Assembly (NCBI GenBank): GCA_017525035.1
Contig: JAFXTH010000006.1
Location: forward strand, 7,714-71,713
From: Bacilli bacterium
GTDB lineage: Bacteria > Bacillota_I > Bacilli_A > RF39 > UBA660
Length of the DNA: 64,000 nucleotides
Direction of reading: 5' to 3'
Shown here: positions 4,864-26,095 of the stretch, one piece after another
How positions within the stretch are numbered: the first letter of the stretch is position 1
Layout: the number at the start of each line of letters is the position of its first letter
The notes under the pieces: generated by a model
Seen by the model: the letters and a program-made list of their open reading frames with translations, nothing else
Database searches by the model: none
Told to the model about the DNA's origin: nothing
Position numbers and translations under genes: made by a program

Positions 4864-5445
4864 ATGAAGTGCCCAAAGTGTAATGCCGAATATAAAACAA
4901 ATTTAAAATTTTGTCCTAAGTGTGGAGAAGTATTTGAATCAAATGATATTCAAATGTTTTCAGATATTTATAATTTAGAATTATTAGAAATGTATTATCC
5001 AAATAAAGAAGAAAAAATATATACTAAAAAGATTAATTATAAATATTTACTTCTTGGATATGTTTATGCAATATACAAAAGAATGTATAAACATGCAGCA
5101 ATTTCTATAATATTATTTGCACTAGGATTGTTAATATTATATTATTTTAAATTAATGGTAGTTTATAGTTTAGGTTTTTTGTTTTACTTTATATTTTTTA
5201 TTATGATATCACCTATAGTATTCTACATTTATAATGTATTCAATTTTGATCGTTTATTATTGTTGTATAGAAAACAGAGAATAAATAAAATAATTTCAAA
5301 AAATAGGGATAAGTCAAAAGAAGAAATAGAAAAAATAATAATTAAAGATAGTGTTAATGATAAATCTGGTGCAGTTATAACTGGAGTAATAAGTACTATT
5401 ATTTTGATTATCTATATTTGTTTATTTATTAGAAGATTTCTTTAA
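4864..5445 (+). CDS. zinc-ribbon membrane protein (DUF2628-like); paralog of 12119-12673
   Basis: MKCPKCNAEY..FCPKCG zinc ribbon followed by TM helices around an AIYKRMYKHA motif. The listed start 4813 overlaps the TGTTATAAT promoter (4840-4848), so ATG 4864 behind GGTGA is preferred. Confidence 0.65.
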   Translation: MKCPKCNAEYKTNLKFCPKCGEVFESNDIQMFSDIYNLELLEMYYPNKEEKIYTKKINYKYLLLGYVYAIYKRMYKHAAISIILFALGLLILYYFKLMVVYSLGFLFYFIFFIMISPIVFYIYNVFNFDRLLLLYRKQRINKIISKNRDKSKEEIEKIIIKDSVNDKSGAVITGVISTIILIIYICLFIRRFL

Positions 5446-5506
5446 AAAAACAAAAAGGATTATTTGAATAAATAATTCTTTTTTTAATTGTTACTAAATT
5501 TATAAT

Positions 5507-5534
5507 CACTAAATTATTTATAATTCATACATTA
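5507..5534 (+). promoter_or_regulatory. orphan copy of the amidase promoter (sigma-K/E-like AC-N16-CATACATTA)
   Basis: The 32-nt block 5525-5556 (TCATACATTAATATAGGTGATTATGATGAATG) matches 9379-9410 with 2 mismatches. It includes a -10-like CATACAtTA, an AGGTGA RBS and ATGAATG. Confidence 0.4.
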
Positions 5535-5744
5535 ATATAGGTGATTATGATGAATGGCATTGGACTCATTTTGTTTGGAAATTATACTATGAAAGAATGC
5601 CAGATGAATGTAAAAATGAAATGAATAATTATATTGAAACAAAGAAGTCAAACAAAATATCTGATTATAGATTAAATGCTTTACAACGATATAGACCATT
5701 AGTTAAGAACAAGAATAAATAGTTTTTAGATTAACTAATTAACT

Positions 5745-5870
5745 AGCAAGTACTGAATTTGTAATACAAACTCAATTTTGGATTTGAATTCACTGCTTGC
5801 GAGCAAGCACTGAATTTATGGCCAAGTGCCACAAACCCAAATATCTAATGGGAGTTTTTCCCCAATCCCC
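5745..5870 (+). repeat. conserved hairpin-module element, copy R1 (possible structured ncRNA)
   Basis: About 90% identical to 12898-13022. Two AGCAAGYACTGAATTT seeds (5745, 5802). A 15-bp imperfect stem joins 5746-5760 to 5786-5800. It is followed by an AT-rich hairpin plus T-run at 5881-5909. Confidence 0.6.
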
Positions 5871-5916
5871 TTTGCATAAAAATTAAGTTTATTACTTAAT
5901 TTTTTTTTATTCTAAT

Positions 5917-5933
5917 CTCTACTCAAAGTAGAG
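5917..5933. promoter_or_regulatory. perfect palindrome CTCTACT-CAA-AGTAGAG at the -35 position of the XRE-ABC promoter
   Basis: 7-bp arms. It lies about 21 nt upstream of the extended -10 TGTATAAT (5954-5961). Candidate auto-operator for the HTH of the downstream gene. Confidence 0.35.
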
Positions 5934-5979
5934 AAGCAATATTATTGACTTATTGTATAATTAATTTGAGGTGATTTAA

Positions 5980-6963
5980 ATGGACTATGAAAAAATAGGT
6001 ACTTTCATTTTAAATCTTAGAAAAGAAAAGAATATGACACAACAAGAATTAGCAGATAAACTTCATGTAACCGATAAAGCGGTATCAAAGTGGGAAACAG
6101 GAAGAGGTATTCCAGATATTGAAACTATAAAAAATCTTGGAAAATTGTTTAATGTAACAGAAAAAGAATTATTAAATGGTGAAAGAGATTATAAGAAAAA
6201 AGAAATAGATCCTAATCATCACTCTATTGTTCTTGATGTTCAGAATTTATCGAAGTCTTTTGGAAAAAGAAAAATACTAAGTAATGTTAATTTGAAGATA
6301 TATGAAGGAGATATAGTTGGGTTAATTGGTCCTAATGGTGCTGGGAAAACAACTTTAATAAAAACAATTTTAAGTTTATATAAAGCAGATACAGGAACAA
6401 TAAAAATATGTAATTATTTAATAGACAATGAATTAGAAAAGGCTTTATCAAAAGTTGGTTCAATAGTAGAAAATCCTGATTTATATCAAAACATTTCAGG
6501 ATGGAAAAATTTACAAATTGTATGTTTAACAAATCATATAAAAGATACTAGTATTATTAATAGCGTAGTTAAACTTGTTGGACTAGAAGATAGAATAAAA
6601 GATAATGTAAAGAGTTATTCTCTTGGTATGAAGCAAAGACTAGGTCTTGCTGCTGCATTAATACGAAAACCCAAAATACTAATATTAGATGAGCCGACAA
6701 ACGGATTAGACCCATATGGTATCAAAGATTTAAGAAAAATATTAAAATACTTAAGCGAAAAAGAAAATATGAGTATTTTAATAAGTAGCCATATACTTGC
6801 AGAAGTAGAAAATATTTGCGATAGAATAATTATCATAAAAGAAGGAAAGTTATTAAGTAATTTTGGAATAGAAGAAATTAAAAACAAGCATATTAGTTTG
6901 GAAGATGAATTTATAAGGAGAACTAAAAATGTAGAGGAGAATTTGTATAATGAAAATAATTGA
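5980..6963 (+). CDS. XRE-family HTH fused to an ABC transporter ATP-binding domain
   Basis: N-terminus NMTQQELADKLHVTDKAVSKWETGRGIPD (HTH_XRE). Then Walker A GPNGAGKTT, signature YSLGMKQRL, Walker B ILILDEPTNGLD and H-loop SSHIL. Confidence 0.85.
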   Translation: MDYEKIGTFILNLRKEKNMTQQELADKLHVTDKAVSKWETGRGIPDIETIKNLGKLFNVTEKELLNGERDYKKKEIDPNHHSIVLDVQNLSKSFGKRKILSNVNLKIYEGDIVGLIGPNGAGKTTLIKTILSLYKADTGTIKICNYLIDNELEKALSKVGSIVENPDLYQNISGWKNLQIVCLTNHIKDTSIINSVVKLVGLEDRIKDNVKSYSLGMKQRLGLAAALIRKPKILILDEPTNGLDPYGIKDLRKILKYLSEKENMSILISSHILAEVENICDRIIIIKEGKLLSNFGIEEIKNKHISLEDEFIRRTKNVEENLYNENN

Positions 6964-8494
6964 TTTAATAAAAGGAGAATTTATAAAGAATTTCAAAATT
7001 AAAAAAATTATAATAGTCTTAATTATCTTATTACTTTCTATAGTTGGAAAAAATTATATAGATGAGTTGAAGATTACAAATGACAATAAAGCTATTTTAG
7101 AGCAAAGTGTTTCATATTTTAAAAATCAACTTGATTTTTACAAAAGTCATCCTGATACAAATCAAATAAAAAAGGAATGGTATTTATTCTCAAATCAAAA
7201 GAATTATGAAATGTATAATAAACTATTGAAAAGTGAAAAATACAATGATTTATCAACACAAAGCTGGCAACATGAATTAAGTAGACGTATTGTCAAAATT
7301 GATACATTAGTTTTTTGGATAGAAAAATATAAAGCAGATAAAAACGTAGACATTAGTTGGATAAATGAAGATTATGAGTTTACTTTGATGTATCAAACTT
7401 ATTTGGAAAAACTATCAAATATGAGTAATGAAGAATTAAGTCAAGAACAGGATAGGATGTTAAAGACTAAATCCGATTTTGAAAACCTTTTAAAAGATAA
7501 TAAATATTACAAGTATATCGAATATATATTAAATAATAATATAGACGATGCAATTTGGATATACGATATTTTTGAATTAGAAACTAAATATTATGAAGTA
7601 ATTATTGATAATAAAGTAGAGGAAGAAAGTTATTTAGTAAAAAATATTAATCAACTAAGAACATTAGGAGTCTTTAATTATGAAAATAAAAGAGCAAATG
7701 ATTTAAGAGATTCTATATTAAAAAAAGATAGAGAAATATTAAAATATTCAATAGATAAAGTTAAAAAGCAAGATATTTCATATGGAGCAATCAGCGTAGG
7801 TGCAGAATCGATTTATATTAGTACCAAATCTTGCGTTAATGGAATATTAGATTTATCAATTGTAATTATGATATTAGTTGTATTATTAGATGGTAATATT
7901 GTTAGCAAAGAGCATAATAAAGGTACTGAAAAATTATTACTAACAACCTCAAACAAGAGGTGGAAAATTCTACTTAGTAAATTTTTATATCTTATTTTAG
8001 AAACATATATTATCTGGTTTGTTGCATTAATACTTCTATTATTATTTGCAGGATTAAAATATGGATTTAATGATTTAATAACTCCAAAGATTTTATATCA
8101 AAACGGAAAAATTATTGAAGTAAATTATATTATTTATATAATAAAACAAATATTTTATTGCAGTATTCCAGTATTAGCTTTTATATCAATAGTTTTTATG
8201 ATTTCAACGATTACCTTAAATTCTGGACTTACAAATGGATTATGTATGATCTTTGCAATTATTTCACCTTTTATGTGGCATTTTATTTATAATTATCATT
8301 TATCGTTATTATCTTTTTTACCATTTCCTTATTTTATGTTCAGTAGTGTTATCACTGTAACTGAAGATTATTTAGGTTCTGTTGATGTTTCATATGCGTC
8401 AGAAGTATATGGTATTATAATTTCATTAGTTACTTTTGTTACATGTTATATAATATCAAATATAGTATTTATAAAAAGAGATGTTAAAAATTAA
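6950..8494 (+). CDS. ABC-2-type permease with large extracytoplasmic domain
   Basis: Overlaps the upstream ATPase gene by 14 nt. One N-terminal TM helix, an approximately 270-aa soluble region, then 5-6 C-terminal TM helices. Confidence 0.6.
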   Translation: MKIIDLIKGEFIKNFKIKKIIIVLIILLLSIVGKNYIDELKITNDNKAILEQSVSYFKNQLDFYKSHPDTNQIKKEWYLFSNQKNYEMYNKLLKSEKYNDLSTQSWQHELSRRIVKIDTLVFWIEKYKADKNVDISWINEDYEFTLMYQTYLEKLSNMSNEELSQEQDRMLKTKSDFENLLKDNKYYKYIEYILNNNIDDAIWIYDIFELETKYYEVIIDNKVEEESYLVKNINQLRTLGVFNYENKRANDLRDSILKKDREILKYSIDKVKKQDISYGAISVGAESIYISTKSCVNGILDLSIVIMILVVLLDGNIVSKEHNKGTEKLLLTTSNKRWKILLSKFLYLILETYIIWFVALILLLLFAGLKYGFNDLITPKILYQNGKIIEVNYIIYIIKQIFYCSIPVLAFISIVFMISTITLNSGLTNGLCMIFAIISPFMWHFIYNYHLSLLSFLPFPYFMFSSVITVTEDYLGSVDVSYASEVYGIIISLVTFVTCYIISNIVFIKRDVKN

Positions 8495-8555
8495 TTAAAA
8501 ATATTATAATTCTACTTTTAATAGGTGTTATTTAATAGTTTCTCGAATTAATATT

Positions 8556-8583
8556 ATTCACGAAAGGAGGAATATTCGTGAAT
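8556..8583 (+). promoter_or_regulatory. 9-bp perfect inverted repeat bracketing RBS and start codon
   Basis: ATTCACGAA-AGGAGGAATA-TTCGTGAAT. The SD sits in the loop and the GTG start (8578) in the 3' arm. Confidence 0.4.
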
Positions 8584-9330
8584 CAAGAAAAAATAGGAAG
8601 GTTTATAAGTGAAAGAAGAAAAATAAAAAAAATGACTCAAGCTGAACTTGGAGAAATACTTGGAGTAAGTGATAAATCAGTATCAAAATGGGAAACTGGA
8701 AAATGCATGCCAGATTTATCATTGTTTCCTGAATTGTGTAAAGTGCTTGATATTACAATTAATGATCTCATGAGTGGTGAAAAAGTAGACAACGAAAAAT
8801 ACATTAACACACTTGAAGTCAATATAGTTAAACTAGCAGATTCCTTAAAAAAGAAAAGAAAAAATAAAATTAAAATGTGCATTATTACTGCTATTATATT
8901 TTTATTTGCTATTTGGGGATATACTGCATATTATAATCTTGCAGAAGAAACTATATCATTTGATGTTGGAATGATGACTTGTAATGTATATAATAATGAA
9001 TTAACTTTTAGTATAAAAGGAACATCGATTTTAAATGAGCATTACACTATAAAAAAAGTAGATGGAAAAGATGTTTATATTTTTAATTGTACACTATTAA
9101 AAAAATATAAAGACTTTTATGCATGGGAATTAAAAAAAGGAATTAATTGTTTAGATGGAGACATTTATTGTAAACAAGGAACTCGTCATAATTTCAAGCT
9201 TAAAGATGACAATATTGATGTATATTATACAGAGTATTCTATAAGTAAATTTGAAAAAGCTACCAATGATGAATTAAAAAATCTTTTAGAAAAATCAAAC
9301 AAAATGGATTGCTCAAATGAAGAAGAATAA
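8578..9330 (+). CDS. membrane-anchored XRE-family HTH protein
   Basis: GTG start behind AAGGAGG. N-terminus KMTQAELGEILGVSDKSVSKWETGKCMPD, a single TM helix (MCIITAIIFLFAIWGYTAYY), then an approximately 130-aa outside domain. Confidence 0.75.
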   Translation: MNQEKIGRFISERRKIKKMTQAELGEILGVSDKSVSKWETGKCMPDLSLFPELCKVLDITINDLMSGEKVDNEKYINTLEVNIVKLADSLKKKRKNKIKMCIITAIIFLFAIWGYTAYYNLAEETISFDVGMMTCNVYNNELTFSIKGTSILNEHYTIKKVDGKDVYIFNCTLLKKYKDFYAWELKKGINCLDGDIYCKQGTRHNFKLKDDNIDVYYTEYSISKFEKATNDELKNLLEKSNKMDCSNEEE

Positions 9331-9360
9331 GAAAAAGATAAACATCTTTTTCTTTTTATT

Positions 9361-9388
9361 CACTTATTAATACAAATCTCATACACTA
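9361..9388 (+). promoter_or_regulatory. sigma-K/E-like promoter of the split amidase gene
   Basis: tCAC-N16-CATACACTA. CATACAnT matches the B. subtilis sigma-E -10 consensus, and AC-N16/17-CATAnnnTA matches the sigma-K consensus. AGGTGA RBS, ATG at 9404. Confidence 0.45.
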
Positions 9389-9403
9389 ATATAGGTGATT
9401 ATA

Positions 9404-9460
9404 ATGAATGAAAGAACTACTAAAAGAGTAGTAGTTGATGCAGGGCATGGAGGACACTGA
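9404..9460 (+). pseudogene. 5' fragment of split N-acetylmuramoyl-L-alanine amidase (codons 1-17, then element-derived His-stop)
   Basis: MNERTTKRVVVDAGHGG-H-stop. DAGHGG is the start of the Amidase_3 motif that continues at 20804. Confidence 0.85.
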
Positions 9461-9564
9461 AAAGCCCAAAATGATAAATGGCTACTGAATCGTGATGTAA
9501 AAGAAGGAATTTTTTAATTCTTACTTTTTTTATGTTATAATATTAATTATGATAGGAGAGTACT

Positions 9565-12090
9565 ATGTTAGAGTTAAAAAATGTTAATAAAATATATAAA
9601 TCTAAGAATGCTAATGATACTGAAGCTTTAAAGAATATCAACATATCTTTTAATAATGTTGGTATGACTTTTATTCTAGGAAAAAGTGGGTGTGGTAAAA
9701 GTACTCTTTTAAACATATTAGGTGGACTTGATATTCCAACAAGTGGAGAAATAGTATTTAAAGGTAAATCATTTAAGTTGTTTAAAAACAATGACTATGA
9801 TAGTTATCGTAATACTTCTGTTGGATTTGTTTTTCAAGAATACAATTTAATCGAAAAGTTTAATGTATTTGATAATGTAGCATATGCTTTAAAACTTCAA
9901 AACAAAAAAATTGATGATAATGTTGTACTAGATGTTTTAGATAAAGTAGGATTAAAAGATCTTGCAAAAAGGAAAGTAAATGAATTATCAGGAGGACAAA
10001 AACAAAGAGTAGCTATTGCTAGAGCTCTTGTTAAGAATCCAAGCATAATTTTAGCAGACGAACCAACAGGAAACTTAGATAGTGAGAGTTCAAAAATGAT
10101 TTTTGACATACTTAAAAATCTTTCACATGAAAGATTAGTAATAGTAGTATCTCATGATGAAGAAAGTGCTAGAACTTATGGAGATAGGATAATAAGCCTT
10201 CAAGATGGAGTAGTAATAAGTGATACTAATCCTATTATTAATCAAGAAGAAAACAATTATACTTTAAAGAAAAATCATTTACCATTTACTGAAGCATTTA
10301 GATTTGCATTAAAAAATATATTTGGTAGAAAAGGTAAGTTAATTTTATCTATAATATTAATATCTTTTGCATTATCATTCTTTGGCTTTGCAGTAATGCA
10401 AAACAAATTAAGAAGTACTAATGAAATAGAAAGAATAATAAATGAATATGATGTAAACTATATTGATATAGAAAAATTAGAGGAGAATTATAGTAATTGT
10501 ATTTTTAAAGGCTATTGGCGTAACTGCTACAATGAAGGAATTATAACAGAAAAAGAATATAATGATTTATCGCAAATAAATGAAACTCCTCTTACTATAA
10601 GATATAGATTTCAAGTATTAAATGCCTATATTAAGCCAATAGAATTATCAGATGAAGAACATAATAAAATGAGTTATTATTATTCAAATTATAAGTATAT
10701 GGGTGCTTTTTCTGAATTAAATAAAGAAGATTTTAATTTTAAATTAATTGGAAGTGTACCAAATACTTATGATGAAATAGTAATAATAAAACCAGTAGCA
10801 GATTACATAATAAAATATGGTGTATATCTAGATAATAATGAAGAATATAAACCACAAAGTTACGAAGAAATAATAAATGATAATAAATATTTAAAATTTG
10901 GTAATGGTAAAGTAAAAATATCAGGAATAATAGATGATGACTTGTCTATATTTGAACCTTTAAAAAATATTAGTAGTGATATAAGAGAAGATAGCTTATC
11001 ACTTGAAAATAAACGATTAATAGAAAAGTATAAATATAAATATCCAGTTCATTTTTATGCTTTAACTGATTTTAAAGATAATATAGAATTAAATGAAAAT
11101 AGTACAAGATATTTTAATATATTAGATAGTAATGATGAATTAAAAACTATAAAAGCTTTTGAACCAATGAAAGTATATACTGAAAATGGACTTATTGATA
11201 TGAAACAAATAGATAAAAGTGGCATAATAGTAAACGAAAACTATTTGGACATTATATCTAAAGGTGATTTCTCTAAAAAAATGAACGATTATATTATTAA
11301 AGGAAAAGATATTGATCCATCAAAATCAAGTGAAGATTATCGTTTAGAATTTGTAACAAATTATATTAAAGAAAATGATATTACTAATAAAATGGTAGCA
11401 TTCTATTTGGCTAAATTATATTCAAATGATGAAAATAATCAAGAAATGCACTTAAAAATATCTGGTGTCATTCTAGATAGTGAAGACTACTATGCTAGTA
11501 AAGAAATACTAAGTCAAGATAGTGATGAAAAATATAATATGTCTTTATATGTATTAACTAAAAATATTAAAGATTATAACAAATACTTTAACGAGTACCC
11601 AATAGATGGAGAACAATATATATCTACAAATGATTTTATTTATAGAATAGCTGAACATGAATTTACTATGAAAGTATTAGCTAAATATATTTTTATAATA
11701 GGTTTAGTATTCTCATTATTTGCTATACTTCAATTATTTAATTTTATAGGTTTATCAATAACTGATAATAAGAAAGAAATAGGAGTTTTAAGAGCTCTTG
11801 GAACAACAAAAAAAGATGTATCAAAAATATATTCAATACAAGGCCTTTTAATTGGATTATTATCATATATGTTATCAATAATTTTGATTATTATCTATTC
11901 TAAAGGAGAAAATGATATTTTTCTTTCAAATTATTTGAAAGAAGTATTTAATTTAGAATTATTTGGCATAACATTTAGTACACTTGCAATAGTATTTGTA
12001 TTCTTTGTAGTAGTTGTATTATTGTCAGTAATAAGTGTAACTTTTAAAATATCTAAGATGAGACCAATAGATGCAATTAATAATAAGTAA
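9565..12090 (+). CDS. fused ABC transporter ATPase-permease (MacB/FtsX type)
   Basis: Walker A GKSGCGKST, signature LSGGQKQRV, Walker B IILADEPTGNLD. Then a TM helix, an approximately 430-aa outside domain, and a C-terminal FtsX block (KKEIGVLRALGTTKKDV). TGTTATAAT promoter at 9533-9541. Confidence 0.85.
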   Translation: MLELKNVNKIYKSKNANDTEALKNINISFNNVGMTFILGKSGCGKSTLLNILGGLDIPTSGEIVFKGKSFKLFKNNDYDSYRNTSVGFVFQEYNLIEKFNVFDNVAYALKLQNKKIDDNVVLDVLDKVGLKDLAKRKVNELSGGQKQRVAIARALVKNPSIILADEPTGNLDSESSKMIFDILKNLSHERLVIVVSHDEESARTYGDRIISLQDGVVISDTNPIINQEENNYTLKKNHLPFTEAFRFALKNIFGRKGKLILSIILISFALSFFGFAVMQNKLRSTNEIERIINEYDVNYIDIEKLEENYSNCIFKGYWRNCYNEGIITEKEYNDLSQINETPLTIRYRFQVLNAYIKPIELSDEEHNKMSYYYSNYKYMGAFSELNKEDFNFKLIGSVPNTYDEIVIIKPVADYIIKYGVYLDNNEEYKPQSYEEIINDNKYLKFGNGKVKISGIIDDDLSIFEPLKNISSDIREDSLSLENKRLIEKYKYKYPVHFYALTDFKDNIELNENSTRYFNILDSNDELKTIKAFEPMKVYTENGLIDMKQIDKSGIIVNENYLDIISKGDFSKKMNDYIIKGKDIDPSKSSEDYRLEFVTNYIKENDITNKMVAFYLAKLYSNDENNQEMHLKISGVILDSEDYYASKEILSQDSDEKYNMSLYVLTKNIKDYNKYFNEYPIDGEQYISTNDFIYRIAEHEFTMKVLAKYIFIIGLVFSLFAILQLFNFIGLSITDNKKEIGVLRALGTTKKDVSKIYSIQGLLIGLLSYMLSIILIIIYSKGENDIFLSNYLKEVFNLELFGITFSTLAIVFVFFVVVVLLSVISVTFKISKMRPIDAINNK

Positions 12091-12117
12091 AAAACTATCT
12101 TGATGATAGTTTTTTTA
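12091..12117. terminator. bidirectional terminator
   Basis: AAAACTATC-TTGAT-GATAGTTTTTTT between convergent genes. Confidence 0.7.
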
Positions 12118-12118
12118 T

Positions 12119-12673
12119 TTATAAAAAGATAAATAATATTAATATTATAGAAACAAATATAGATATAATTAATAATTTATAATCAATTTTATTTTGTTCA
12201 ACAATTTTCTTATTAAGTTCTTCTTTACTACATTCCTTAGAATTATTTAATAATTTTCTATATTTAGACATTATATCTTTGTTAATCAAGCTACTTAATA
12301 ATACTGGATGGTATTTAACAAATAATACCACTAAGATTACTAATAATGGACCACTTAATGGAAATAGCCTTATATATAGTAATATTACCACATCCCATTT
12401 TTTTATACAGTATAATATGAACAGAAACCATAATAATAAATATATAGTTGTTCTAATCATTTTCTTAGAAATTGAATAAAACCAACCAAATAAAAAGTAT
12501 TCATCTTTAGGATTCCCATTGTTTTCAAAATTATATTGAATATACTGTTCTACATCATATGATGAATATTTTTCTGAAAATTCATCTACTATTTTTGAAT
12601 TAAATAAGTTACCACATCTAGGGCAAAAGTTTAATTGCCCTTTGAATTTAGAATTACATTTCGAACATATCAT
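12119..12673 (-). CDS. zinc-ribbon membrane protein (DUF2628-like); paralog of 4864-5445
   Basis: MICSKCNSKF..FCPRCG followed by TM helices. The listed start 12715 overlaps a TGGTATAAT promoter on the minus strand, so ATG 12673 behind GAAAGGA is preferred. Confidence 0.65.
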   Translation of the reverse strand: MICSKCNSKFKGQLNFCPRCGNLFNSKIVDEFSEKYSSYDVEQYIQYNFENNGNPKDEYFLFGWFYSISKKMIRTTIYLLLWFLFILYCIKKWDVVILLYIRLFPLSGPLLVILVVLFVKYHPVLLSSLINKDIMSKYRKLLNNSKECSKEELNKKIVEQNKIDYKLLIISIFVSIILILFIFL

Positions 12674-12741
12674 ATATATTTTCCTTTCATAAAAATTATA
12701 CCATAAAATAGACATTTTAGTTAAATAGTAAGTTACTAGCT

Positions 12742-12897
12742 AGCAAGCACTGAATTTGTCCGACAAAGTAAGTTTTCAGTAATTGCTAATAACAGCAAGC
12801 ACTGAATTTGTCCGACAAAGTAAGTTTTCAGTAATTGCTAATAACAGCAAGCACTGAATTTGTCCGACAAAGTAAGTTTTCAGTAATTGCTAATAAC
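12742..12897 (+). repeat. three perfect tandem copies of a 52-nt hairpin unit
   Basis: Unit AGCAAGCACTGAATTTGTCCGACAAAGTAAGTTTTCAGTAATTGCTAATAAC at 12742, 12794 and 12846. The arms AGCAAGCACTGAA / TTCAGTAATTGCT pair at 11 of 13 positions. Confidence 0.95.
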
Positions 12898-13022
12898 AGC
12901 AAGTACTGAATTTGTAATACAAACTCAATTTGGATTTTAATTCACTGCTTGCAAGCAAGCACTGAATTTATGTCCAAGTGCCACAAATCCAAATATTCAA
13001 TGGAGGTTAAACCCCAATCCCC
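12898..13022 (+). repeat. conserved hairpin-module element, copy R2
   Basis: About 90% identical to 5745-5870 (1 indel, about 11 substitutions). Seeds at 12898 and 12954. Confidence 0.6.
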
Positions 13023-13071
13023 AGCCCTTTTCTATTAATAAAAAATATGATACAATATTATCAAGTTAGAG

Positions 13072-13800
13072 GTGGTCAAAGTGATAGTAGTATCTTCTAT
13101 ATTAATTATACTTCTATTATCAATTTATCTTATTGAAAGAAAGCAATTAAAAAAGGAAACCAAAAAGAAATTATTACTAACATTGTTTGTAGTATTATTA
13201 ACTAATATTATATCTTTTAGCCCCATTGCATTAATACTTGTTTTAATAGTTATCATACTGATATATTCATGGAAAGAAATAAATGAAAAAACAAAGAAAA
13301 AAATTTACAAAATATGTGCTATTACTTTAGGAATCACATTATTATTTTTCATTTTAACACCTAGGTGGCTTTACTATCGAGTATTGTACCTTGATGATAG
13401 AGTAAAAATAACTGCTAAGATATATGTAGATGGAGAACAAATGAATATAGATGAAGATTTTGTTACTATAGGTGGTAAAGGAATAGGAAAAAAACACATC
13501 AGCAGTGGTGATGATGGAATAAAAATATCATTCAAGGGAAACGAATATGAAAATTATCATATTAATATGAAAATAGAACCATATCACAATGATTATTACA
13601 TCGACTTATTACTTCAACATTGGAATTGGTGGGATATAAATCGTATTGATGTAGTAATAAATATAGACACAAAAGAAAACACAATTAGTTATTCTGTAGA
13701 AAATAGATTTATTTCTGAAGAAAAAAATTATACAGAAGATGTATTAACATTGAGTGAAACAAAAGAATTATCAACAATTAATAAACTGTTTCTTGGGTAA
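13072..13800 (+). CDS. membrane protein, unknown function
   Basis: GTG start (13072 or 13081) behind AGAGGTGG. TGATACAAT extended -10 at about 13047-13055. 3-4 TM helices then an approximately 130-aa soluble domain. Confidence 0.55.
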   Translation: MVKVIVVSSILIILLLSIYLIERKQLKKETKKKLLLTLFVVLLTNIISFSPIALILVLIVIILIYSWKEINEKTKKKIYKICAITLGITLLFFILTPRWLYYRVLYLDDRVKITAKIYVDGEQMNIDEDFVTIGGKGIGKKHISSGDDGIKISFKGNEYENYHINMKIEPYHNDYYIDLLLQHWNWWDINRIDVVINIDTKENTISYSVENRFISEEKNYTEDVLTLSETKELSTINKLFLG

Positions 13801-13840
13801 CTAATTGAATTTAAGTAAAAAAATAAAGAGATAATTCTCT

Positions 13841-14608
13841 TTATTTTAATTGTTCTAATATTTCGATAATTTCATCTTTTGTGTAATTATAGCTTATAAA
13901 TTGATAGTAAACATTATCATATACAAAAGCTGCAGTCATTCTAGTTTTATCCCAATTATTTTCATAAATAACTGCCTTAGTATTAAGATTCTTTATTTCA
14001 TATACTAGATCTAATTCTTTTTCACCTGTTGCATCTTTTCCTTCTAAGAATGGATATATGTATCTTTCTTCAGCACACTTATTTAGAATAGATATATCTA
14101 CAGAAATAACTTTTCCTGTTTTATCTCCGTTCTTACCAAATTGACCATTAGTATTATCAATAAATTCAGACCACCACAAGTGGACTACTCCAATTTCTCC
14201 ATTACTATTTAAAGATGTACTATATCCTATTGATTTACTAGTTGTGTAATCATAGTCTAAGATATGGAAGCCAAGATTTTGTTCGACTTCATTGTGTGTC
14301 ATACTAACAAAATTTTCACTTTTTCTAGCATTAATGTTTATTTCTTTAAAATTTGCATTTTCCACAATATTTACTTTCGTTCCATCTTCAAACTCAACAC
14401 CTGTAGACCAACTTTTAAATAACTCTGCTATTTGTTTTGCATATACAATTGATATAGATATTGTAAATACTAATACTATTAAACCCAAAGAATAACCAAG
14501 TTTTTTATAATTATATTTTCTTTTGCTAATAGTTTTTTCCATTATTTTGTTTTCCAAATTATCACTTATTCTTATTGATTTGTAAGAATCACTAATTTTA
14601 TTATTCAT
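13841..14608 (-). CDS. putative anti-sigma factor (single-pass, DUF4367-like outside domain)
   Basis: Overlaps the stop of the upstream sigma gene by 8 nt. A short cytoplasmic N-terminus, one TM helix (LGYSLGLIVLVFTISISIVYA), then an approximately 190-aa outside domain. Confidence 0.5.
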   Translation of the reverse strand: MNNKISDSYKSIRISDNLENKIMEKTISKRKYNYKKLGYSLGLIVLVFTISISIVYAKQIAELFKSWSTGVEFEDGTKVNIVENANFKEININARKSENFVSMTHNEVEQNLGFHILDYDYTTSKSIGYSTSLNSNGEIGVVHLWWSEFIDNTNGQFGKNGDKTGKVISVDISILNKCAEERYIYPFLEGKDATGEKELDLVYEIKNLNTKAVIYENNWDKTRMTAAFVYDNVYYQFISYNYTKDEIIEILEQLK

Positions 14609-15080
14609 TATTTTCCTCCTTAATAATTTCCTTTAATTTTTTTCTTGCTCTATAAAGAATTGTTTGAATATTAGTTTCTGTTTTTTTCATTATACTTGAT
14701 ATTTCTCTAATTCTATAATTTTCATAATAATATAAAAAAATAACAAGTCTTTCATCTTTAGAGAGTTTATTTATTTCATCTAGAAGCTCACATTCTTTAT
14801 TATCAACTTTTAAAATATTTTCCTCTTTTTCTGTTAAAGTACATATCTTTCTTTTCCAAGATGATAAGAATATAGTTTTACAATTATTAATGGTTATTTT
14901 GATTAACCATTTTTTAATTTCAGTATCGTTACATTCAAGAATTTTCTTTTTTTTATATAGTTTTATGAAAACATTTTGAACTACATCATCAGAGTCTGCA
15001 ATATTTTTTGTATAACTATATGCTAATCTATAGATATCATTTTTATATAAATTAAAAATTCTTAAGAATTGTTCATCCAT
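14601..15080 (-). CDS. ECF-like sigma-70 family RNA polymerase sigma factor
   Basis: Region 2 (IYRLAYSYTKNIADSDDVVQNVFIKLY) and region 4 HTH (YENYRIREISSIMKKTETNIQTILYRARKKLK). ATG 15080 behind GGAGG is preferred over the listed 15128. Confidence 0.8.
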   Translation of the reverse strand: MDEQFLRIFNLYKNDIYRLAYSYTKNIADSDDVVQNVFIKLYKKKKILECNDTEIKKWLIKITINNCKTIFLSSWKRKICTLTEKEENILKVDNKECELLDEINKLSKDERLVIFLYYYENYRIREISSIMKKTETNIQTILYRARKKLKEIIKEENNE

Positions 15081-15270
15081 GATTATCCTCCATATATTGA
15101 AAAGCTTTTCACTATAATAACTATTCATTATTATAAAATATCACATAATATTTAAAAAAATATAAATAATAATACATTACAAATAAAAAACTACACTATT
15201 AGTACAATATTAGAACAAAAGAAATTTTGATTTCTTCTTTTAAATGTTATAATAAAAAAGGGGTGATTTT

Positions 15271-16698
15271 ATGGATGATGATTTTCTAATTGAATATATA
15301 GAACATGAAGTAGAAAATGGTTGTATCGATTTTAAAAAAGATATTTATGATTTTGATGTTCCAAAATGCAAGGAAGATTTTTTAGTCGATGTTATATCTT
15401 TTGCAAACAGTCATATTAATGGTGATAAATATATAATAACCGGAATTAAGCTACACAAAGATAATTCAAGAGACTTTAATGGAATAACTGAGTCCAAAAT
15501 TAAAGATGGTGCTGATTATCAGAGTATAGTAAATGATAATATAGAGCCAAATATAGTAGTTGATTTTAAAATAATTGAATATAAAAACAAAAAATATGGT
15601 ATTTTTAGAATTGGTAAAGAGAATCAAGATCAACCATACTTATTGAGTAAGCAATTTCTCAATTTGCAAAAGGGATTTATAAGAATAAGAAAAGGTCAAA
15701 AAAATGAAAACATTACAAGAAGAGATTTTGACTTATACTATAAAATTAAAGATTTAAATGATTATAGCAATATTCATATTAAAGGAATAGTTGATGGAAA
15801 AATAAGTGATAAATATCAAATAAATCAATACAATGATAATTTGAATTTTGAAAAGGCAAAGTCATTAATAAATGAAACTATAGTAGAAATAAAGAAAATT
15901 AAGTTAGCCAAAAGCTCTAATTTTTTGGCATTTGGGGATTTATTGTCACTGGATGAAAAAGAAATAGAAACAATTAAAACATATGCACAATTATATAGTA
16001 TAGTTTTAACTGATGATTTTTTTGATATAGGTAATATTAGGATTTTTACTGGTCCATATTCATCAGCAAGTTTATATGGAAGCAAAACTGAAGAAAAAAA
16101 ATATAAATTAATACGTAAGTTGATTACTATGATTTCAAGTTTTTTAGGATTTGATGAGTATTATAAAAAGATTAATTCTATTTATTACACAGAATTATTA
16201 ATAAAAAATGAAGGAAAAAAATTTGATGAAGATATTGAAGTAACATTAAAAATTGAGAAAAGTAAATTATTAAATTATTCTAAATTTCCTGTACCACCAG
16301 AGTCAATAATAGAAAAAATAATAGATGATAAATTATTAGATAAACATTTGAATAATCAAAAGGTAAATGGTGTTAATAATTATACTTGTAAAATTCCGAG
16401 AATATTTCCAACTTATCCAATGAAAATAAAATTGCCAATTGGATATTCGAAACCAGATTATAAAGAATATGTAGATTACTATATAAACTATGTTCAAACA
16501 ATTGCAGATTATGATGTAAGTGAGGATGAAGATTATTATTATTTAAAATATAATCAAAGGGAGATAAAACCTAATGAATTAATACATTTACCAGCTAGGA
16601 TTATTTTTATTGATAAACCTAATGAAATAGAATATGAAATTAAAACAAAATATAATTCAAATATAAATAAAGGGAAAATATCATTGATTGAAAAATAA
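15271..16698 (+). CDS. AlbA_2/Schlafen-like (divergent AAA-type DNA/RNA-binding) N-domain protein with unknown C-terminal half
   Basis: N-terminus EHEVENGCIDFKKDIY...DVISFANSHINGDKYIITGIK...YGIFRIG..QPYLL resembles the PF04326 pattern (E..LEFK, then aNt.GG.l.iGv). The C-terminal 270 aa have no recognisable motif. Confidence 0.45.
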   Translation: MDDDFLIEYIEHEVENGCIDFKKDIYDFDVPKCKEDFLVDVISFANSHINGDKYIITGIKLHKDNSRDFNGITESKIKDGADYQSIVNDNIEPNIVVDFKIIEYKNKKYGIFRIGKENQDQPYLLSKQFLNLQKGFIRIRKGQKNENITRRDFDLYYKIKDLNDYSNIHIKGIVDGKISDKYQINQYNDNLNFEKAKSLINETIVEIKKIKLAKSSNFLAFGDLLSLDEKEIETIKTYAQLYSIVLTDDFFDIGNIRIFTGPYSSASLYGSKTEEKKYKLIRKLITMISSFLGFDEYYKKINSIYYTELLIKNEGKKFDEDIEVTLKIEKSKLLNYSKFPVPPESIIEKIIDDKLLDKHLNNQKVNGVNNYTCKIPRIFPTYPMKIKLPIGYSKPDYKEYVDYYINYVQTIADYDVSEDEDYYYLKYNQREIKPNELIHLPARIIFIDKPNEIEYEIKTKYNSNINKGKISLIEK

Positions 16699-16782
16699 AA
16701 ATTATATAATTAAAAAAAAGATTAGAAATCAATGTTTCTAATCATTTTTAATTTGTTATAATATTTATCCAAATTCTCTTTT

Positions 16783-17190
16783 TTATTTAAAGTAATCCTT
16801 GATTGCTGCTTTAATAGTTTTTTGATCATTTTTACTTTGGGATTTAAACCATTTTGTATTGGTTATGTCATTACTTGCAAAATAACTAGAGAATAATTTT
16901 TTATAAGTGTTCTGCCTTGCCATATATTCTTCCATTTCTGGATCTATGGTAGTTTCTATATCTTCTTTAGAAAAACCTGCAATAGTCATTAATTCCCTTA
17001 AATCTAAGTTAAGTACATTTGCCATCTTTTTAAGAGTTAAGGCATTTGTACTTTTTCTTTCTCCATTTTCCAATCTAGCTATGGTATTATTACCAACTCC
17101 TATTTGCCTAGCTAATTCTCTTTGTGATATTCCTTTCTTTTCTCTAGCTTCTTTAATAATATCAGCTAATTCTCTTTTATTATTTGTCAA
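16783..17190 (-). CDS. XRE/cI-like HTH repressor
   Basis: GISQRELARQIGVGNNTIARLENGERKST, a classic HTH_3. It is the second gene of a leftward operon facing a divergent promoter region. Confidence 0.8.
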   Translation of the reverse strand: MTNNKRELADIIKEAREKKGISQRELARQIGVGNNTIARLENGERKSTNALTLKKMANVLNLDLRELMTIAGFSKEDIETTIDPEMEEYMARQNTYKKLFSSYFASNDITNTKWFKSQSKNDQKTIKAAIKDYFK

Positions 17191-17201
17191 ATTATCACCT
17201 T

Positions 17202-17930
17202 CTAATTTGTTTTCCTTTTATAATTATTTTTTAGTTGCTTTTCTATTTTCTTAGATAAACTTTTAACTAATTGTTCATAGTTTTTAGATAAATATAATTC
17301 ATTATCAATTATACTCAATCCAATTATTGCTTTCTGTGTATATGCTCTTTCAAATACTATCCTTTTTTCACTTATTAATTCTTTTAATACTTGCCCACCA
17401 TCATCCGTACAAATGACAAATGTTATTTCAAGTCCTCCAACTTTTGTTTCTTTCATAATGCTATTGTAAAAATCTACCATTTTATCGATAGCTACTTCCT
17501 TATTTTTTGAATTAAATGATTTTGTATGATGAGTAACTATAATACTATAACAATCATTGTGATACGTTTTAATGTATAAAGATAAATCTTTATCTGATTT
17601 TTTTAATTCAAAGTTATGTTGTTTCATTGATTTACTAAAATCTTTAAAAAAATGCTCGTATGTCTTATAGGGACTTACATAAACATCTGGTTGAACAATC
17701 TTTTTCTTTTCTTTTTTAACTATAATATTCTTTTTTTCAGCGATACACATTAAAATTATCAAAAATAAACTTGCAATCCAAGCTACAATTCCAAAAATAG
17801 TAGGGATTAAATCTGAATAATGAAATATTAGACAACCCAAGCCAATTATAAAAAACAGAGACCAACTAATAATAACAATGTAAAAAAATAGATAATATAA
17901 TATTTTCAATAATAGCGTTTTTTTATCCAT
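17202..17930 (-). CDS. membrane protein, unknown function (co-operonic with the repressor)
   Basis: Three N-terminal TM helices then an approximately 150-aa cytoplasmic domain. No HExxH, so it is not an ImmA-type protease. Confidence 0.55.
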   Translation of the reverse strand: MDKKTLLLKILYYLFFYIVIISWSLFFIIGLGCLIFHYSDLIPTIFGIVAWIASLFLIILMCIAEKKNIIVKKEKKKIVQPDVYVSPYKTYEHFFKDFSKSMKQHNFELKKSDKDLSLYIKTYHNDCYSIIVTHHTKSFNSKNKEVAIDKMVDFYNSIMKETKVGGLEITFVICTDDGGQVLKELISEKRIVFERAYTQKAIIGLSIIDNELYLSKNYEQLVKSLSKKIEKQLKNNYKRKTN

Positions 17931-17941
17931 CTCATTATCAC

Positions 17942-18040
17942 CACAATTATAGTATTACACAAATTGTGTCCTTTTGCAACAAAAATGTTGACTTTTATTT
18001 TCTATCCATGTTATATTGTAGTAAAGATATTGTGTCTTTA
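17942..18040. promoter_or_regulatory. divergent promoter/operator region (lysogeny-switch-like)
   Basis: Half-sites CACAAT (17942), CACAA-A-TTGTG (17958-17968), and ATTGTGTC at 17963 and 18029. Rightward promoter: TTGACT (17988-17993), 17-nt spacer, TTATAT (18011-18016). Leftward TATAAT on the minus strand at 17946-17951. Confidence 0.55.
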
Positions 18041-18071
18041 GGAAACAATACAACAAATAAGGAGGGGAAAT

Positions 18072-18335
18072 ATGCATGAAAAGAAAGAACTAGATATGAG
18101 TAATCATAGGATATGGAAAGATAAGAATATTAAACCTGAATGTAAAAGAATATTTGCTTATCTATATTCAAAAGGATTTAATGTATCAGATTTCTATTTA
18201 AATGTGGGAGACATACAACAAGTAGTAAGAATTAAAAATGTTGGATTAAGAAAGAATCTAAGTACATTAGAAGATAATAAGTATCTAATATTTAGAGAAT
18301 ATGATACAGGAATGTATGAAATAAGTATTTGTTAG
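18072..18335 (+). CDS. small winged-helix-like protein
   Basis: AAGGAGGGG RBS. 87 aa. CKRIFAYLYSKGF...IQQVVRIKNVGLRKNLSTLEDNKYL resembles phage/plasmid wHTH replication or regulatory proteins. Confidence 0.5.
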   Translation: MHEKKELDMSNHRIWKDKNIKPECKRIFAYLYSKGFNVSDFYLNVGDIQQVVRIKNVGLRKNLSTLEDNKYLIFREYDTGMYEISIC

Positions 18336-18457
18336 ATTGGTAAAACACTAATAAATAATGGTACAGTAAATGTTTTGAGATTTATGTTAGTACCTTTTCT
18401 ATTAGATATAGAAAAAACATCGGTAAGAAAAGTCCTAATTTAATAATAAGGAGAATT

Positions 18458-18928
18458 ATTATATTAAATGGTCAATTTATCATTACTCCTAGAATATTAT
18501 TTAATGATGAGAACTTATCAAGAACTGAAATAGATGTTCTTAGTCTCATTATTTCACTTACCTTAAAAAAAGGATTTTGTTTTGCGAGTAATGACTATTT
18601 AAAAAAATATATTAATACATCAGAAAGAACAATTACTAGTTCATTGTCAAAATTAAAACAATTAAAATATATAATAATTAAAACAAATAACAATAAAAGA
18701 AGAATATATCTTAATAGAGATAAGATACCAGCAGAAATTTCTAAATGGATAGCAAGAAATTGCAATGGAGAGGTAGAAAAAACTTGCGACTATAAAATAA
18801 AGAATAAAAATAAAAAAGAGAATAAAAACATTAATCCATATTGGTTAGATCATCCTGAAATGATTAAAGAACCGAGCATTACTGAAGAAGAAAGAAAAGA
18901 ATTGGAAGACTTACTTAATAATTTCTAA
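18458..18928 (+). CDS. HTH (replisome-organizer/DnaD-N-like) protein with non-canonical or damaged start
   Basis: The frame is open from 18359. The conserved-looking N-terminus GQFIITPRILFNDENLSRTEIDVLSLIISL...ERTITSSLSKLKQLKYI lies upstream of the first ATG (18644). AAGGAG at 18448 is followed only by ATT/ATA codons in frame, and ATG 18468 is out of frame by 1 nt. Confidence 0.45.
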   Translation: MILNGQFIITPRILFNDENLSRTEIDVLSLIISLTLKKGFCFASNDYLKKYINTSERTITSSLSKLKQLKYIIIKTNNNKRRIYLNRDKIPAEISKWIARNCNGEVEKTCDYKIKNKNKKENKNINPYWLDHPEMIKEPSITEEERKELEDLLNNF

Positions 18929-18948
18929 TAAAAAGGGGGAATGATTAA

Positions 18949-19089
18949 ATGGAGGTAGTATATAATGTAAAAAATAAATATAAGACAAATGAATTTAGTT
19001 CAACTGATGACATGAAAAAAATAATTAATATTAAACTAATAAATGTCATTATGAAATTAGAAAAACAAAAATATCTATTAAACAATTAA
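18949..19089 (+). CDS. 46-aa ORF directly upstream of the recombinase (speculative directionality-factor candidate)
   Basis: AAAAGGGGGA RBS 8 nt upstream. MEVVYNVKNKYKTNEFSSTDDMKKIINIKLINVIMKLEKQKYLLNN. No homology can be asserted. Confidence 0.25.
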   Translation: MEVVYNVKNKYKTNEFSSTDDMKKIINIKLINVIMKLEKQKYLLNN

Positions 19090-19094
19090 CGAAA

Positions 19095-19114
19095 ATATGT
19101 TATATATAACATAT
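19095..19114. promoter_or_regulatory. perfect 20-bp palindrome upstream of recombinase gene
   Basis: ATATGTTATA|TATAACATAT, 35 nt upstream of the recombinase start. Confidence 0.5.
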
Positions 19115-19149
19115 CATCGATTAAGTAGCCATTTATCCGAAATGGAGGA

Positions 19150-20757
19150 ATGGCTATGGTAGAAAAGGTAGGTGTATATTGTAGATTATCTGATGAAGAT
19201 AGAGATAAAGTAAATAAAACTGATGATAGTGATAGCATAATAAATCAAAGAAGTATGTGTTTAAAATATGCCAATCAAAATGGTTGGGATGTAGTAGATA
19301 TATATTCTGATGATGACTTTTCTGGAGCTGGAACTTATAGACCAGATTTTGAAAGACTTATTAAAGATTGTGAAAGTGGAAAAATTAACCTTGTTCTTTG
19401 TAAATCTCAATCAAGATTTTCAAGAGATATGGAAGTAATAGAAAGATACCTTCATAATAAGTTCATAGAGTGGGGTGTAAGATTCGTTAGTATCGTAGAT
19501 AATGCAGATACTAGCATTGAATCAAACAAGAAATCTAGACAGATAAATGGGCTTATAAACGAGTGGTATTTAGATGACTTATCACAAAATATTAAAAAGT
19601 CATTAAAGAACAAAAGAGAAGATGGTTTGTTTATGGGTAGCTTTGCTTCTTATGGATATGAAAGAGATGAAGAAGATTATCATAAACTAATAATTGATCC
19701 AGTAGCAGCAGAAGTTGTTAGAAAGATATTTCAAATGTATGCAGAAGGATATGGATATCACAGAATATGTGTTTATTTAAACAATAATAAGATTCCACCA
19801 AGATCCATTTATAAAAAACAAAAAGGTAGTAAATTTGTTTGTGGAAGTTGTGATTATGATAATGTTATGTGGAATCCAGATACAATTGCTCAAATATTAA
19901 GAAATGAAGTATATATTGGTAATTTAGTTCAAGGAAAAACAACACATGTTAGTTATAAAAATCATAAAAAGAAAAATGTTCCTCAAAAAGAATGGTGCAA
20001 GATAGAAAATACCCATGAACCAATTATTGATATGGAAACCTGGAATAAGGTCCAAGAAATACTAAATAATCACTTTAAGACAACCAAGAATAAGCAAATG
20101 ACTTATTTCACAAAAAAAGTGTATTGCAGTTGTTGTGGTAAAGCATTTATGAGAAATGTTTATAGTGTTAAATCAGAGAAAACTGGAAAAAGAGCATATA
20201 TGCAATGTAAAGGAAATAAAAAGTATCATATTTGCTCAAATAATAAAGCAATTAGAATGGATAAACTCGAAGAAATAGTATTAAAAGAAATAAATGATTT
20301 ATTAAAGAATTACTATGATAAGAATAATTTAAAAGATCTCTATGAAAAAAGATGTTTACAAGAAACAAATAATATTGATTCAATAAAAAATCTAGAAAAA
20401 GAAAAAGAAGAACTAAATAAAAAGATTTCTACTAATAAAAACTATTATAGAAATCTATTTGAAGAAAAAGTAAAAGGTGTAATTTCTGAAGATATGTTTC
20501 AAATGATGTCGAAAGACTATTTCAATGAAATCGAAAATATGATGATTAGAATTGAAGTAATTGATAATGAGATAAAAGAGATAAAAAAAGACAAAATTGA
20601 TAAGAAACAAGCTACAGATATATTAAATAAATATAGACACATTAAAAAGTTGAATAAAGTAATTCTAGATGAATTTATTGATAAGATTTTTATAGGAGAA
20701 ATTGATAAAAACAATAATACAAGAGATATAGAAATAATATGGAACTTTGAGTTCTAA
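19150..20757 (+). CDS. large serine recombinase
   Basis: N-terminal resolvase domain with VGVYCRLSDEDRD (catalytic Ser), DSDSIINQR and SQSRFSRD. Recombinase domain, then Cys-rich zinc ribbon (CSCCGK...CKGNKKYHICSN), then a long coiled-coil C-terminus. The start may be ATG 19156 behind GGAGG. Confidence 0.92.
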   Translation: MAMVEKVGVYCRLSDEDRDKVNKTDDSDSIINQRSMCLKYANQNGWDVVDIYSDDDFSGAGTYRPDFERLIKDCESGKINLVLCKSQSRFSRDMEVIERYLHNKFIEWGVRFVSIVDNADTSIESNKKSRQINGLINEWYLDDLSQNIKKSLKNKREDGLFMGSFASYGYERDEEDYHKLIIDPVAAEVVRKIFQMYAEGYGYHRICVYLNNNKIPPRSIYKKQKGSKFVCGSCDYDNVMWNPDTIAQILRNEVYIGNLVQGKTTHVSYKNHKKKNVPQKEWCKIENTHEPIIDMETWNKVQEILNNHFKTTKNKQMTYFTKKVYCSCCGKAFMRNVYSVKSEKTGKRAYMQCKGNKKYHICSNNKAIRMDKLEEIVLKEINDLLKNYYDKNNLKDLYEKRCLQETNNIDSIKNLEKEKEELNKKISTNKNYYRNLFEEKVKGVISEDMFQMMSKDYFNEIENMMIRIEVIDNEIKEIKKDKIDKKQATDILNKYRHIKKLNKVILDEFIDKIFIGEIDKNNNTRDIEIIWNFEF

Positions 20758-20794
20758 ATACTAATAATAAATTTGGACTTTTCCGATGCCCCGA

Positions 20795-25969: not shown

Positions 25970-26095
25970 GCACTGACAAATATCAGTGCTTTTATTTGAG
26001 CAATTGGTTTACATAAGAAACTGAAAAATATCATTCTTTTTTTGGTATATAACTAATAATATATTATAATTTATATATAAGGATGGTGTTTAAAT

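Follow-up and report, generated by a model that had tools for sequence, protein, structure and literature searches.

The 64-kb window (the whole stretch of DNA analysed here, 64,000 nucleotides) contains two copies of a module, R1 (5745-5870) and R2 (12742-13022), which lie in the same orientation, that is, as direct repeats. Judging from their sequence, R1 and R2 are very likely oriTs of the MOBP7 kind (Tn1549/pRS01/pC221-like) that have been kept without relaxase genes, as orphan oriTs or as oriT mimics. Neither a relaxase nor a nikA homologue is encoded in the window, and on this reading R1 and R2 would therefore be orphan oriTs. Our preferred explanation for the module is an oriT belonging to a known relaxase group, from an undescribed lineage, with orphan copies and an unusual tandem array. 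A preliminary description of this DNA had proposed a non-coding, hairpin-structured element tied to mobile segments and serine-recombinase elements, and our analysis supports both points.

Structure of the repeat and its nic-like cores

A 16-nt seed, AGCAAGYACTGAATTT, has seven exact matches in the window against a chance expectation of 0.19, and none of 100 shuffles gave eight matches at up to 2 mismatches. Two of the seven lie in R1 and five in R2 (Table 1). Every non-terminal unit is an imperfect palindrome with the seed as its left arm. The terminal unit differs in that it closes with a short G/C hairpin and CCCC. When 5745-5870 was aligned with 12898-13022, the mean column identity was 87% over 185 columns, flanks included, and the similarity of R1 and R2 broke off precisely 3' of CCCCAATCCCC. 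The similarity and common orientation seen in the preliminary description were thus borne out. The imperfect stem that it reported, with a C.C mismatch and T.G pairs, is present (14-15 bp), as are the second seed and the C-rich tail. Three of its statements hold only in part. The R2 copy placed at 12898-13022 is real, but R2 starts at 12742, and three 52-bp tandem units had been overlooked. The AT-rich hairpin with a T-run exists (5878-5908), but it is peculiar to the R1 flank, lies outside the conserved module and is absent at R2. The GCACT..AGTGC mini-hairpin is present but lineage-specific; most other lineages have the conserved stem GAATTTG..CAAATTC there.

Read on the minus strand, each seed gives 5'-CAAATTC-AGTRCTTG/CT-3' (the slash marks the nic position), which corresponds to an inverted-repeat arm, 8 nt and the MOBP7 nic consensus; the CAAATTC arm is followed by the 8 nt AGTGCTTG/. 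The nic core is GTGCTTG/CT in five of the seven window seeds and GTACTTG/CT, with A for G at -4, in the other two. Both copies have the same minus-strand order: the G/C hairpin GGGGATTGGGG-loop-CCCCATT, the inverted repeat GAATTTG..CAAATTC, 8 nt and GTGCTTG/CT. The nic core is only 6-7 nt long. Of 11 occurrences of the rare hexamer GCTTGC/GCAAGC on the two strands of the window, 7 fall within R1/R2. Since GCTTG is also found on the plus strand of palindromic units (5795, 12947 and the terminal units of two other loci, L142 and L167), the minus strand is only the predicted nicked strand. In terms of sequence, the conserved 17-mer is explained as the nic region plus the proximal repeat arm. These two parts would be the functional sequence, so that one arm is invariant across classes and the other drifts. 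The oriT reading would also explain why the left border of the module lies at the seed and why the breakpoints of its relatives lie at seeds.

Published nic sites include RYGCTTG/C in Tn1549, TGCTTG/CCA in pRJ6 (typed P7) and CTTG/CA in pRS01, pS7a and pS7b (PMC7755788 Table A3). The pRS01 oriT oligonucleotide reads GTAAGATGctatCATCTTAC-TATGCTTG/CA, and its arm CATCTTAC followed by TATGCTTG/ shows the same geometry of repeat, 8 nt and nic as the module (PMC4256276). The module shares with the oriTs of MOBP7 systems (Tn1549, pRS01, pRJ6/pC221-type mobC-mobA plasmids, integrative mobilisable elements) a nic core GCTTG/C at a distance of 8 nt from an inverted repeat, on its 3' side. We found a similar arrangement in the S. 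epidermidis plasmid pSE50D-3 (mobC-mobA-mobB, typed MOBP), where the region upstream of mobC reads GGGGTTTGGGGattatCCCCAA .. GGCTagcaaAGCC AATGCTTG/CC. A covariance model made from the terminal units of the module alone matches positions 798-868 of this plasmid (29.3 bits, E 1e-4), just upstream of mobC and on the strand opposite to it. In a MAFFT alignment, this pC221-type oriT region of pSE50D-3 is collinear with the minus strand of the module through the G/C hairpin, the inverted repeat and ..TGCTTGC, with sequence identity confined to these core motifs. The same model gave no match in C. perfringens p6. In both plasmids the nic lies on the coding strand of the mob genes, whereas the module is inverted relative to mob genes. 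The window copies further differ from MOBP7 systems in having no relaxase and up to five repeat-plus-nic cores in tandem; tandem nic-core arrays are not a described trait of this oriT family. The extra upstream units would be duplicated repeat-plus-nic cores. They could have arisen by ordinary slippage or through a relaxase that initiates at one core and terminates at a neighbouring one.

Table 1. Positions of the module parts, the R2-bearing element and an accompanying reading frame (window coordinates unless a locus is named)
Feature	Position	Strand	Remarks
Seed starts	5745, 5802, 12742, 12794, 12846, 12898, 12954		
R1 accessory unit B	5745-5801	-	57-bp imperfect palindrome; seed 5745-5760, complementary arm ~5787-5800; covariance model match 5745-5793, 27.4 bits
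R1 unit B, minus-strand nic-like core	5747/5746	-	5'-AGTACTTG/CT
R1 unit B, plus-strand nic-like core	5795-5800	+	GCTTGC; ACTGCTTG/CG
R1 terminal (core oriT-like) unit	5802-5870	-	covariance model 54.3 bits, E 7e-11; seed 5802-5817; inverted repeat 5812-5817 and 5839-5845; G/C hairpin 5847-5853 and 5860-5866; CCCC 5867-5870
R1 terminal unit, predicted nic	5804/5803	-	5'-AGTGCTTG/CT-3'; consensus from PMC7755788 Table A3
R2 tandem units, three perfect 52-bp	12742-12793, 12794-12845, 12846-12897	-	each an imperfect palindrome beginning with the seed; minus strand ..AGTGCTTG/CT
R2 accessory unit B	12898-12953	-	homologous to 5745-5801; minus-strand core AGTACTTG/CT; plus-strand GCTTGC 12947-12952
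R2 terminal (core oriT-like) unit	12954-13022	-	covariance model 61.7 bits, E 1e-12; seed 12954-12969; G/C hairpin 12999-13005 and 13012-13018; CCCC 13019-13022
R2 terminal unit, predicted nic	12956/12955	-	
Integrated element, ~11.3 kb, holds R2	9446-20803	+	9-bp core CATGGAGGA at 9446-9454 and 20795-20803
~90-aa ORF (other loci)	L123 184-459; L135 892-1203; L150 module-strand 1944-2240; L195 3530-3805; L213 196-468; L219 2521-2793		

Relatives of the module and the pairing of its stems

The module is conserved beyond the two window copies: genome and metagenome searches found it at about 30 loci of gut and rumen Bacillota, all within mobile DNA and all in uncultured hosts. Of the 50 loci found with a two-seed pattern in 185,579 species genomes, 14 are true homologues. 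They belong to Erysipelotrichaceae/'Tenericutes'/Clostridia MAGs (24-28% GC) and to Acutalibacteraceae MAGs. The metagenome scan gave 6 further contigs, and exact-protein look-ups added strain variants; the look-up with the gene to the right of R2 gave no record. Several metagenome contigs end at the module. In these genome and metagenome scans there are 1-2 loci per genome. All loci have a common architecture of 1-5 palindromic units (41-69 bp) followed by the terminal unit, which consists of the seed, the stem GAATTTG..CAAATTC, sometimes an extra hairpin, and AATGGGG-loop-CCCCAAT-CCCC. The terminal unit thus closes with AATGGGG-loop-CCCCAATCCCC, and the module borders are sharp at both ends. 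The seed is identical across bacterial classes.

The module could not be matched to a known RNA family in the preliminary description, and it is absent from Rfam, which gave nothing relevant at the gathering threshold for the window and 16 loci, or at E up to 10 for R2. In IMG/VR, the single-seed scan gave only chance single matches, and neither the two-seed nor the seed+hairpin pattern matched any viral sequence. BLAST of the module against sequenced plasmids and phages gave only chance matches of 26-30 nt, and searching the literature for the strings of seed and tail yielded nothing relevant.

With the arms paired by hand, the repeat stem shows compensatory changes (GAATTCG with CGAATTC, GGATTTC with GGAAATCC). 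Such changes are also present in the G/C hairpin (GGGAG with CTCCC, GGGAC with GTCCC, GGGAT with ATCCC, TTAGGG with CCCTAA). Using a model-based alignment of 52 distinct sequences, we found pairing in 87.7% of cells. Two-sided changes occurred at 7 of 11 pairs, a result matched by 2 of 500 shuffles. The observed pairing percentage, the cells changed on both sides and the covariation score were reached by none of the 500 shuffles, and the slid controls of the stem test collapsed. RNAalifold run on the plain MAFFT alignment, with no structure supplied, gave no consensus fold because the loops were misaligned; therefore, the hand-paired arms and the model-based alignment were used instead.

Paired stems may also mean RNA. 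In this case the module would be a plus-strand structured sRNA or cis-regulatory leader, in which tandem hairpins present the 16-nt sequence and the C-rich tail pairs with SD-like sequences, as in C-rich Firmicute sRNAs. The compensatory changes agree with this, the sequence folds far more stably than shuffled controls (z -4.0 and -7.3), in most loci the module and the gene after it share a strand, and co-transcription of the module is unavoidable wherever a recombinase gene ends at it. Nevertheless, we consider an RNA very improbable. A sigma-A promoter search in and before the module found no conserved site, and there is no canonical terminator within the module or behind R2. It had been argued that the T.G pairs of the stem are wobble-compatible only in plus-strand RNA. 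This turned out to have no generality: hairpin energies are similar or equal on both strands, and the non-Watson-Crick positions in 24 units are mostly non-wobble (G.T 23, A.C 11, other 41). In the terminal unit, the mismatches as read by eye on the plus strand are A.C. G.U pairs show no enrichment specific to one strand, and the informative sequence is the one read from the minus strand. The presence of the module follows the relaxase type, as described below, and no RNA-related context. Thus, having no Rfam match even at E up to 10, no conserved promoter, no terminator and no strand-specific wobble, the sRNA, including the discrete plus-strand transcript suggested earlier, is unsupported.

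It is extremely unlikely, in our view, that the module is a passive or structural repeat, that is, a REP/BOX/MITE-like palindrome, a terminator or insulator array, or iterons or a centromere for RepA_N/ParB. With a first unit, n tandem units and a terminal unit, the module resembles BOX elements in its modular layout, and ParB, RepA_N and HTH_36 genes lie near some copies. However, a known extragenic repeat of the REP/BOX type, which has tens to hundreds of copies scattered over a genome, does not fit 1-2 loci per genome, with only about 14 of 185,579 species genomes and 6 metagenome contigs matching the two-seed pattern. The neighbouring proteins vary by locus, though the seed is the same in all classes, and the seed spacing of 45-69 bp shows no helical phasing. 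Degenerate terminator or insulator hairpins, which had been offered as an alternative, are not supported either, as no U-tract follows the stems. The terminator near 25971, said to share sequence with the arms, has only a 9-mer in common with them and is of the ordinary kind. Because the neighbouring genes are not conserved, we also rejected iterons, a centromere and a type III antitoxin. Type III toxin-antitoxin repeats and CRISPR were discarded on the downstream genes, which differ in every lineage; moreover, the 'spacers' are complementary to the repeat and identical across the three tandem units.

A block of about 830 nt of non-coding DNA lies 5' of the module in Acutalibacteraceae and is 93% identical between species (L154 1214-2045; also L142 module-strand 1-465, L155 and L158). 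It has no Rfam match. The block contains, at ~1571-1599, a promoter close to consensus (TTGACA-17-TACAAT) and, at ~1725-1835, a long stem resembling a terminator, and is possibly an sRNA or leader of these islands.

Association with relaxase and recombinase genes

The homologues of the L123 recombinase (70, 58 and 57% identity) lie in the gene order ORF90 - recombinase - short spacer - NikA-like (PF21983) - Relaxase (PF03432). The spacer between recombinase and nikA is 96-179 nt and contains a single, complete module unit of about 62 nt, AGCAAGCAACGGATTTG..TAAATCC..ATGGGGAcaCCCCAATCCCC. This one-unit module ends 1-4 nt 5' of the SD of the nikA-like gene. In total, the module adjoins NikA-like and PF03432 relaxase genes at 12 related loci (L195-L203, L213-L215). 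Sister islands with Mob_Pre (L216-L221) have neither seed nor tail, and both are also absent from the mob-less sister islands (L204-L209). Because the module is missing from Mob_Pre and mob-less sisters of the same recombinase family, it tracks the relaxase type and not the recombinase. The PF03432 relaxase has the HUH motif HLNTNHIHNH and weak NCBIfam matches to TraI/MobA(P) and SAG1250 relaxases. It gave 602 plasmid matches, chiefly in Enterococcus and Staphylococcus; the two relaxase plasmids examined are both typed MOBP, with the gene order mobC-relaxase. The module relatives resemble MOBP7 oriTs in their position, immediately 5' of a MobC/NikA-like gene and a PF03432 relaxase.

Every member of the L123 serine-recombinase family, whatever the relaxase type, has on its 5' side a conserved ORF of about 90 aa that gave no Pfam/NCBIfam match (Table 1). 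This ORF is a candidate directionality factor or regulator. The Mob_Pre sister islands have a different palindrome, CCCCATATCTTGTTGGTACGACAAGATATATAGGGGG, in the spacer between recombinase and mob (L216 ~5090-5125; L220 ~4900-4935), presumably their own MOBV-type oriT.

R2 lies inside an integrated element, and R1 lies just outside it. The large serine recombinase gene (19150-20757) is located at the right end of this element, which interrupts a sporulation-type N-acetylmuramoyl-L-alanine amidase (Amidase_3/LysM) gene. The amidase promoter and first 18 codons (MNERTTKRVVVDAGHGG) are at 9401-9454, and the remainder (HGGSDPGAV...) directly follows the recombinase gene. Joining both CATGGAGGA junctions restores an intact 416-aa amidase ORF. 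The 11.3-kb element is a skin-like intervening element. Since it carries R2 but no mob genes, it looks like an integrative element mobilisable in trans.

The amidase promoter/RBS/start region (TCATACAnTAATATAGGTGATTAtaATGAATG) recurs in part elsewhere: window 5499-5556 corresponds to 9353-9410, and more partial copies are present in L122 (module-strand 1586-1753, 5759-5882) and L128 (oriented 1127-1242). The 'orphan sigma-K-like promoter' described near 5507 is one of these partial copies of the amidase promoter region. The recurring start region is a second recurrent junction sequence of the mosaic region, and its copies are possibly left-end remnants of earlier insertions. The LysM repeats of the amidase gene (21356-21912) and the internal tandem repeats of ~303-315 nt in a 737-aa Big_2-type surface protein gene (26096-28309) are ordinary coding repeats.

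The frequent neighbourhood of recombinases suggests another function, an att or res-like site of a large serine (or other site-specific) recombinase, with the 41-57 bp palindrome as a dimer site and crossovers at the seeds shuffling cassettes. The large serine recombinase gene ends 0-20 nt 5' of the first seed in L123, L150, L168, L173 and L175, the flanks reassort at the module, and the unit sizes are comparable to those of typical large-serine-recombinase sites. In spite of this, such a site is very improbable. The window recombinase uses another site, with its core in the amidase gene. Three unrelated recombinase types, one of them a tyrosine integrase, accompany the module. In L135 it lies 256 nt past a large serine recombinase stop; in Acutalibacteraceae, 1-1.3 kb upstream of a TnpX-like recombinase, beside TnpW or ParB; in L167, downstream of RepA_N and TnpV; and in L143, at the left end of a small tyrosine-integrase element. 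The module is missing from those recombinase homologues that are accompanied by Mob_Pre or by no mob genes, and in the integrated copies of L123, L168 and L195 it is internal, between the recombinase gene and nikA. We dropped the att/res reading on the amidase att core and the relaxase-type swap test. No tRNA 3'-end direct repeats were found as island ends in the fetched loci.

Reassortment of flanks and possible mobilisation in trans

The flanks of the two window copies can be written as left1-R1-right1 and left2-R2-right2. L122 has left1, one terminal unit and right2, and the 7.2 kb between them are absent; L128 has left2-module-right1. All four flank combinations are therefore represented across the window, L122 and L128, with breakpoints at the nic-bearing seeds. 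In Acutalibacteraceae, the 93% identical block ending at the tail is joined to varied cargo-plus-recombinase modules. Strains with an identical Zn-ribbon protein have 1, at least 2 or 3 of the 52-bp units, and the segment on the right-hand side of the tail is of three kinds. Among strains with 99% identical flanks, the unit number is 3 in the window, 1 in L177/L179 (= L185/L188) and at least 2 in L178.

Relaxase-mediated oriT-oriT recombination or homologous recombination could have produced the four flank combinations. Relaxase-mediated site-specific recombination between oriTs is carried out by R388 TrwC and R1162 MobA. As in that case, direct-repeat putative oriTs flank a segment, here deleted in L122 and joined end-to-end in L128. 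Unlike for R388 and R1162, we infer the oriT-oriT recombination, and RecA-dependent recombination between the 126-bp repeats would give the same products. As R1 and R2 are direct repeats, relaxase action or plain homologous recombination could release or delete the 7.2-kb segment between them.

If R1 and R2 are MOBP7-kind oriTs, their hairpins would be bound by a MOBP7 relaxase and a NikA/MobC-like partner that a mobilisable or conjugative element in the same cell provides in trans; the GGGG-loop-CCCC hairpin is the putative site of the accessory protein. The relaxase would cut at G/C and pilot the minus strand into the recipient. R2 would serve as the oriT of the serine-recombinase island 9455-20803. 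Initiation at R1 or R2 with termination at the other would release or delete the 7.2-kb ABC-transporter segment. Orphan MOBP7-like oriT sequences have been documented in relaxase-less islands and elements (PMC12084326), and oriT mimics, in 1-3 copies per replicon, are used by relaxases in trans (PMC4993578). The staphylococcal pWBG749/pSK41 mimics and the Faecalibacterium oriT-only elements are relaxase-less copies of the oriT of a conjugative element on otherwise non-mobilisable DNA, as R1/R2 would be. Mimic systems also have several copies per replicon and inverted and accessory repeats, as R1/R2 do (PMC4993578; PMC12084326). The relaxase family of the staphylococcal mimics differs, and they are plasmid-borne, whereas R1/R2 are chromosomal or island-borne. 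Relaxase-less oriT copies mark DNA that a helper element could mobilise. We predict that the island 9455-20803 and the 7.2-kb ABC-transporter segment are mobilisable in trans by a MOBP7 relaxosome.

A more speculative and rather unlikely extension is that the tandem cores and paired orphan oriTs form a relaxase-driven cassette-exchange system, in which a trans MOBP7 relaxase starts at one core and ends at another. Unit numbers would then change, and a segment between modules (e.g. 5871-12741) would be excised as a transferable circle and re-insert at any resident module, so that the oriT would be both a transfer origin and an integron-like cargo site. The tandem nic cores and exact flank reassortment at seeds may offer a natural system for relaxase cargo shuffling between islands. 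The seed, inverted repeat and G/C hairpin provide a sequence and covariance signature for a putative oriT family of uncultured rumen and gut Bacillota, lineages in which oriTs are seldom annotated, and by this signature relaxase-less islands can be flagged as potentially transferable.

In L195 (7886-9875), the relaxase is followed by an 847-aa ABC/FtsX fusion whose architecture and size are as in window 9565-12090. L190 (2888-5434) encodes an 848-aa ABC/FtsX-type protein and a Zn-ribbon gene, followed by another module, and this ABC/FtsX locus has about 80% DNA identity to window 9353-12759. The second module behind the L190 cassette suggests that some complete elements may carry two oriT copies bracketing the ABC cassette. 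On the 3' side of R2, close relatives have three alternative cargo segments (window 13023-16810, 17206-17945). In the window, 13072-16698 holds membrane protein, putative anti-sigma, ECF-type sigma and Schlafen/AlbA_2 genes. These genes are replaced in L190 by a 274-aa membrane protein set (L190/L191 region), and in L185 about 590 nt stand in their place (window strand 10794-11383 and 11780-11789).
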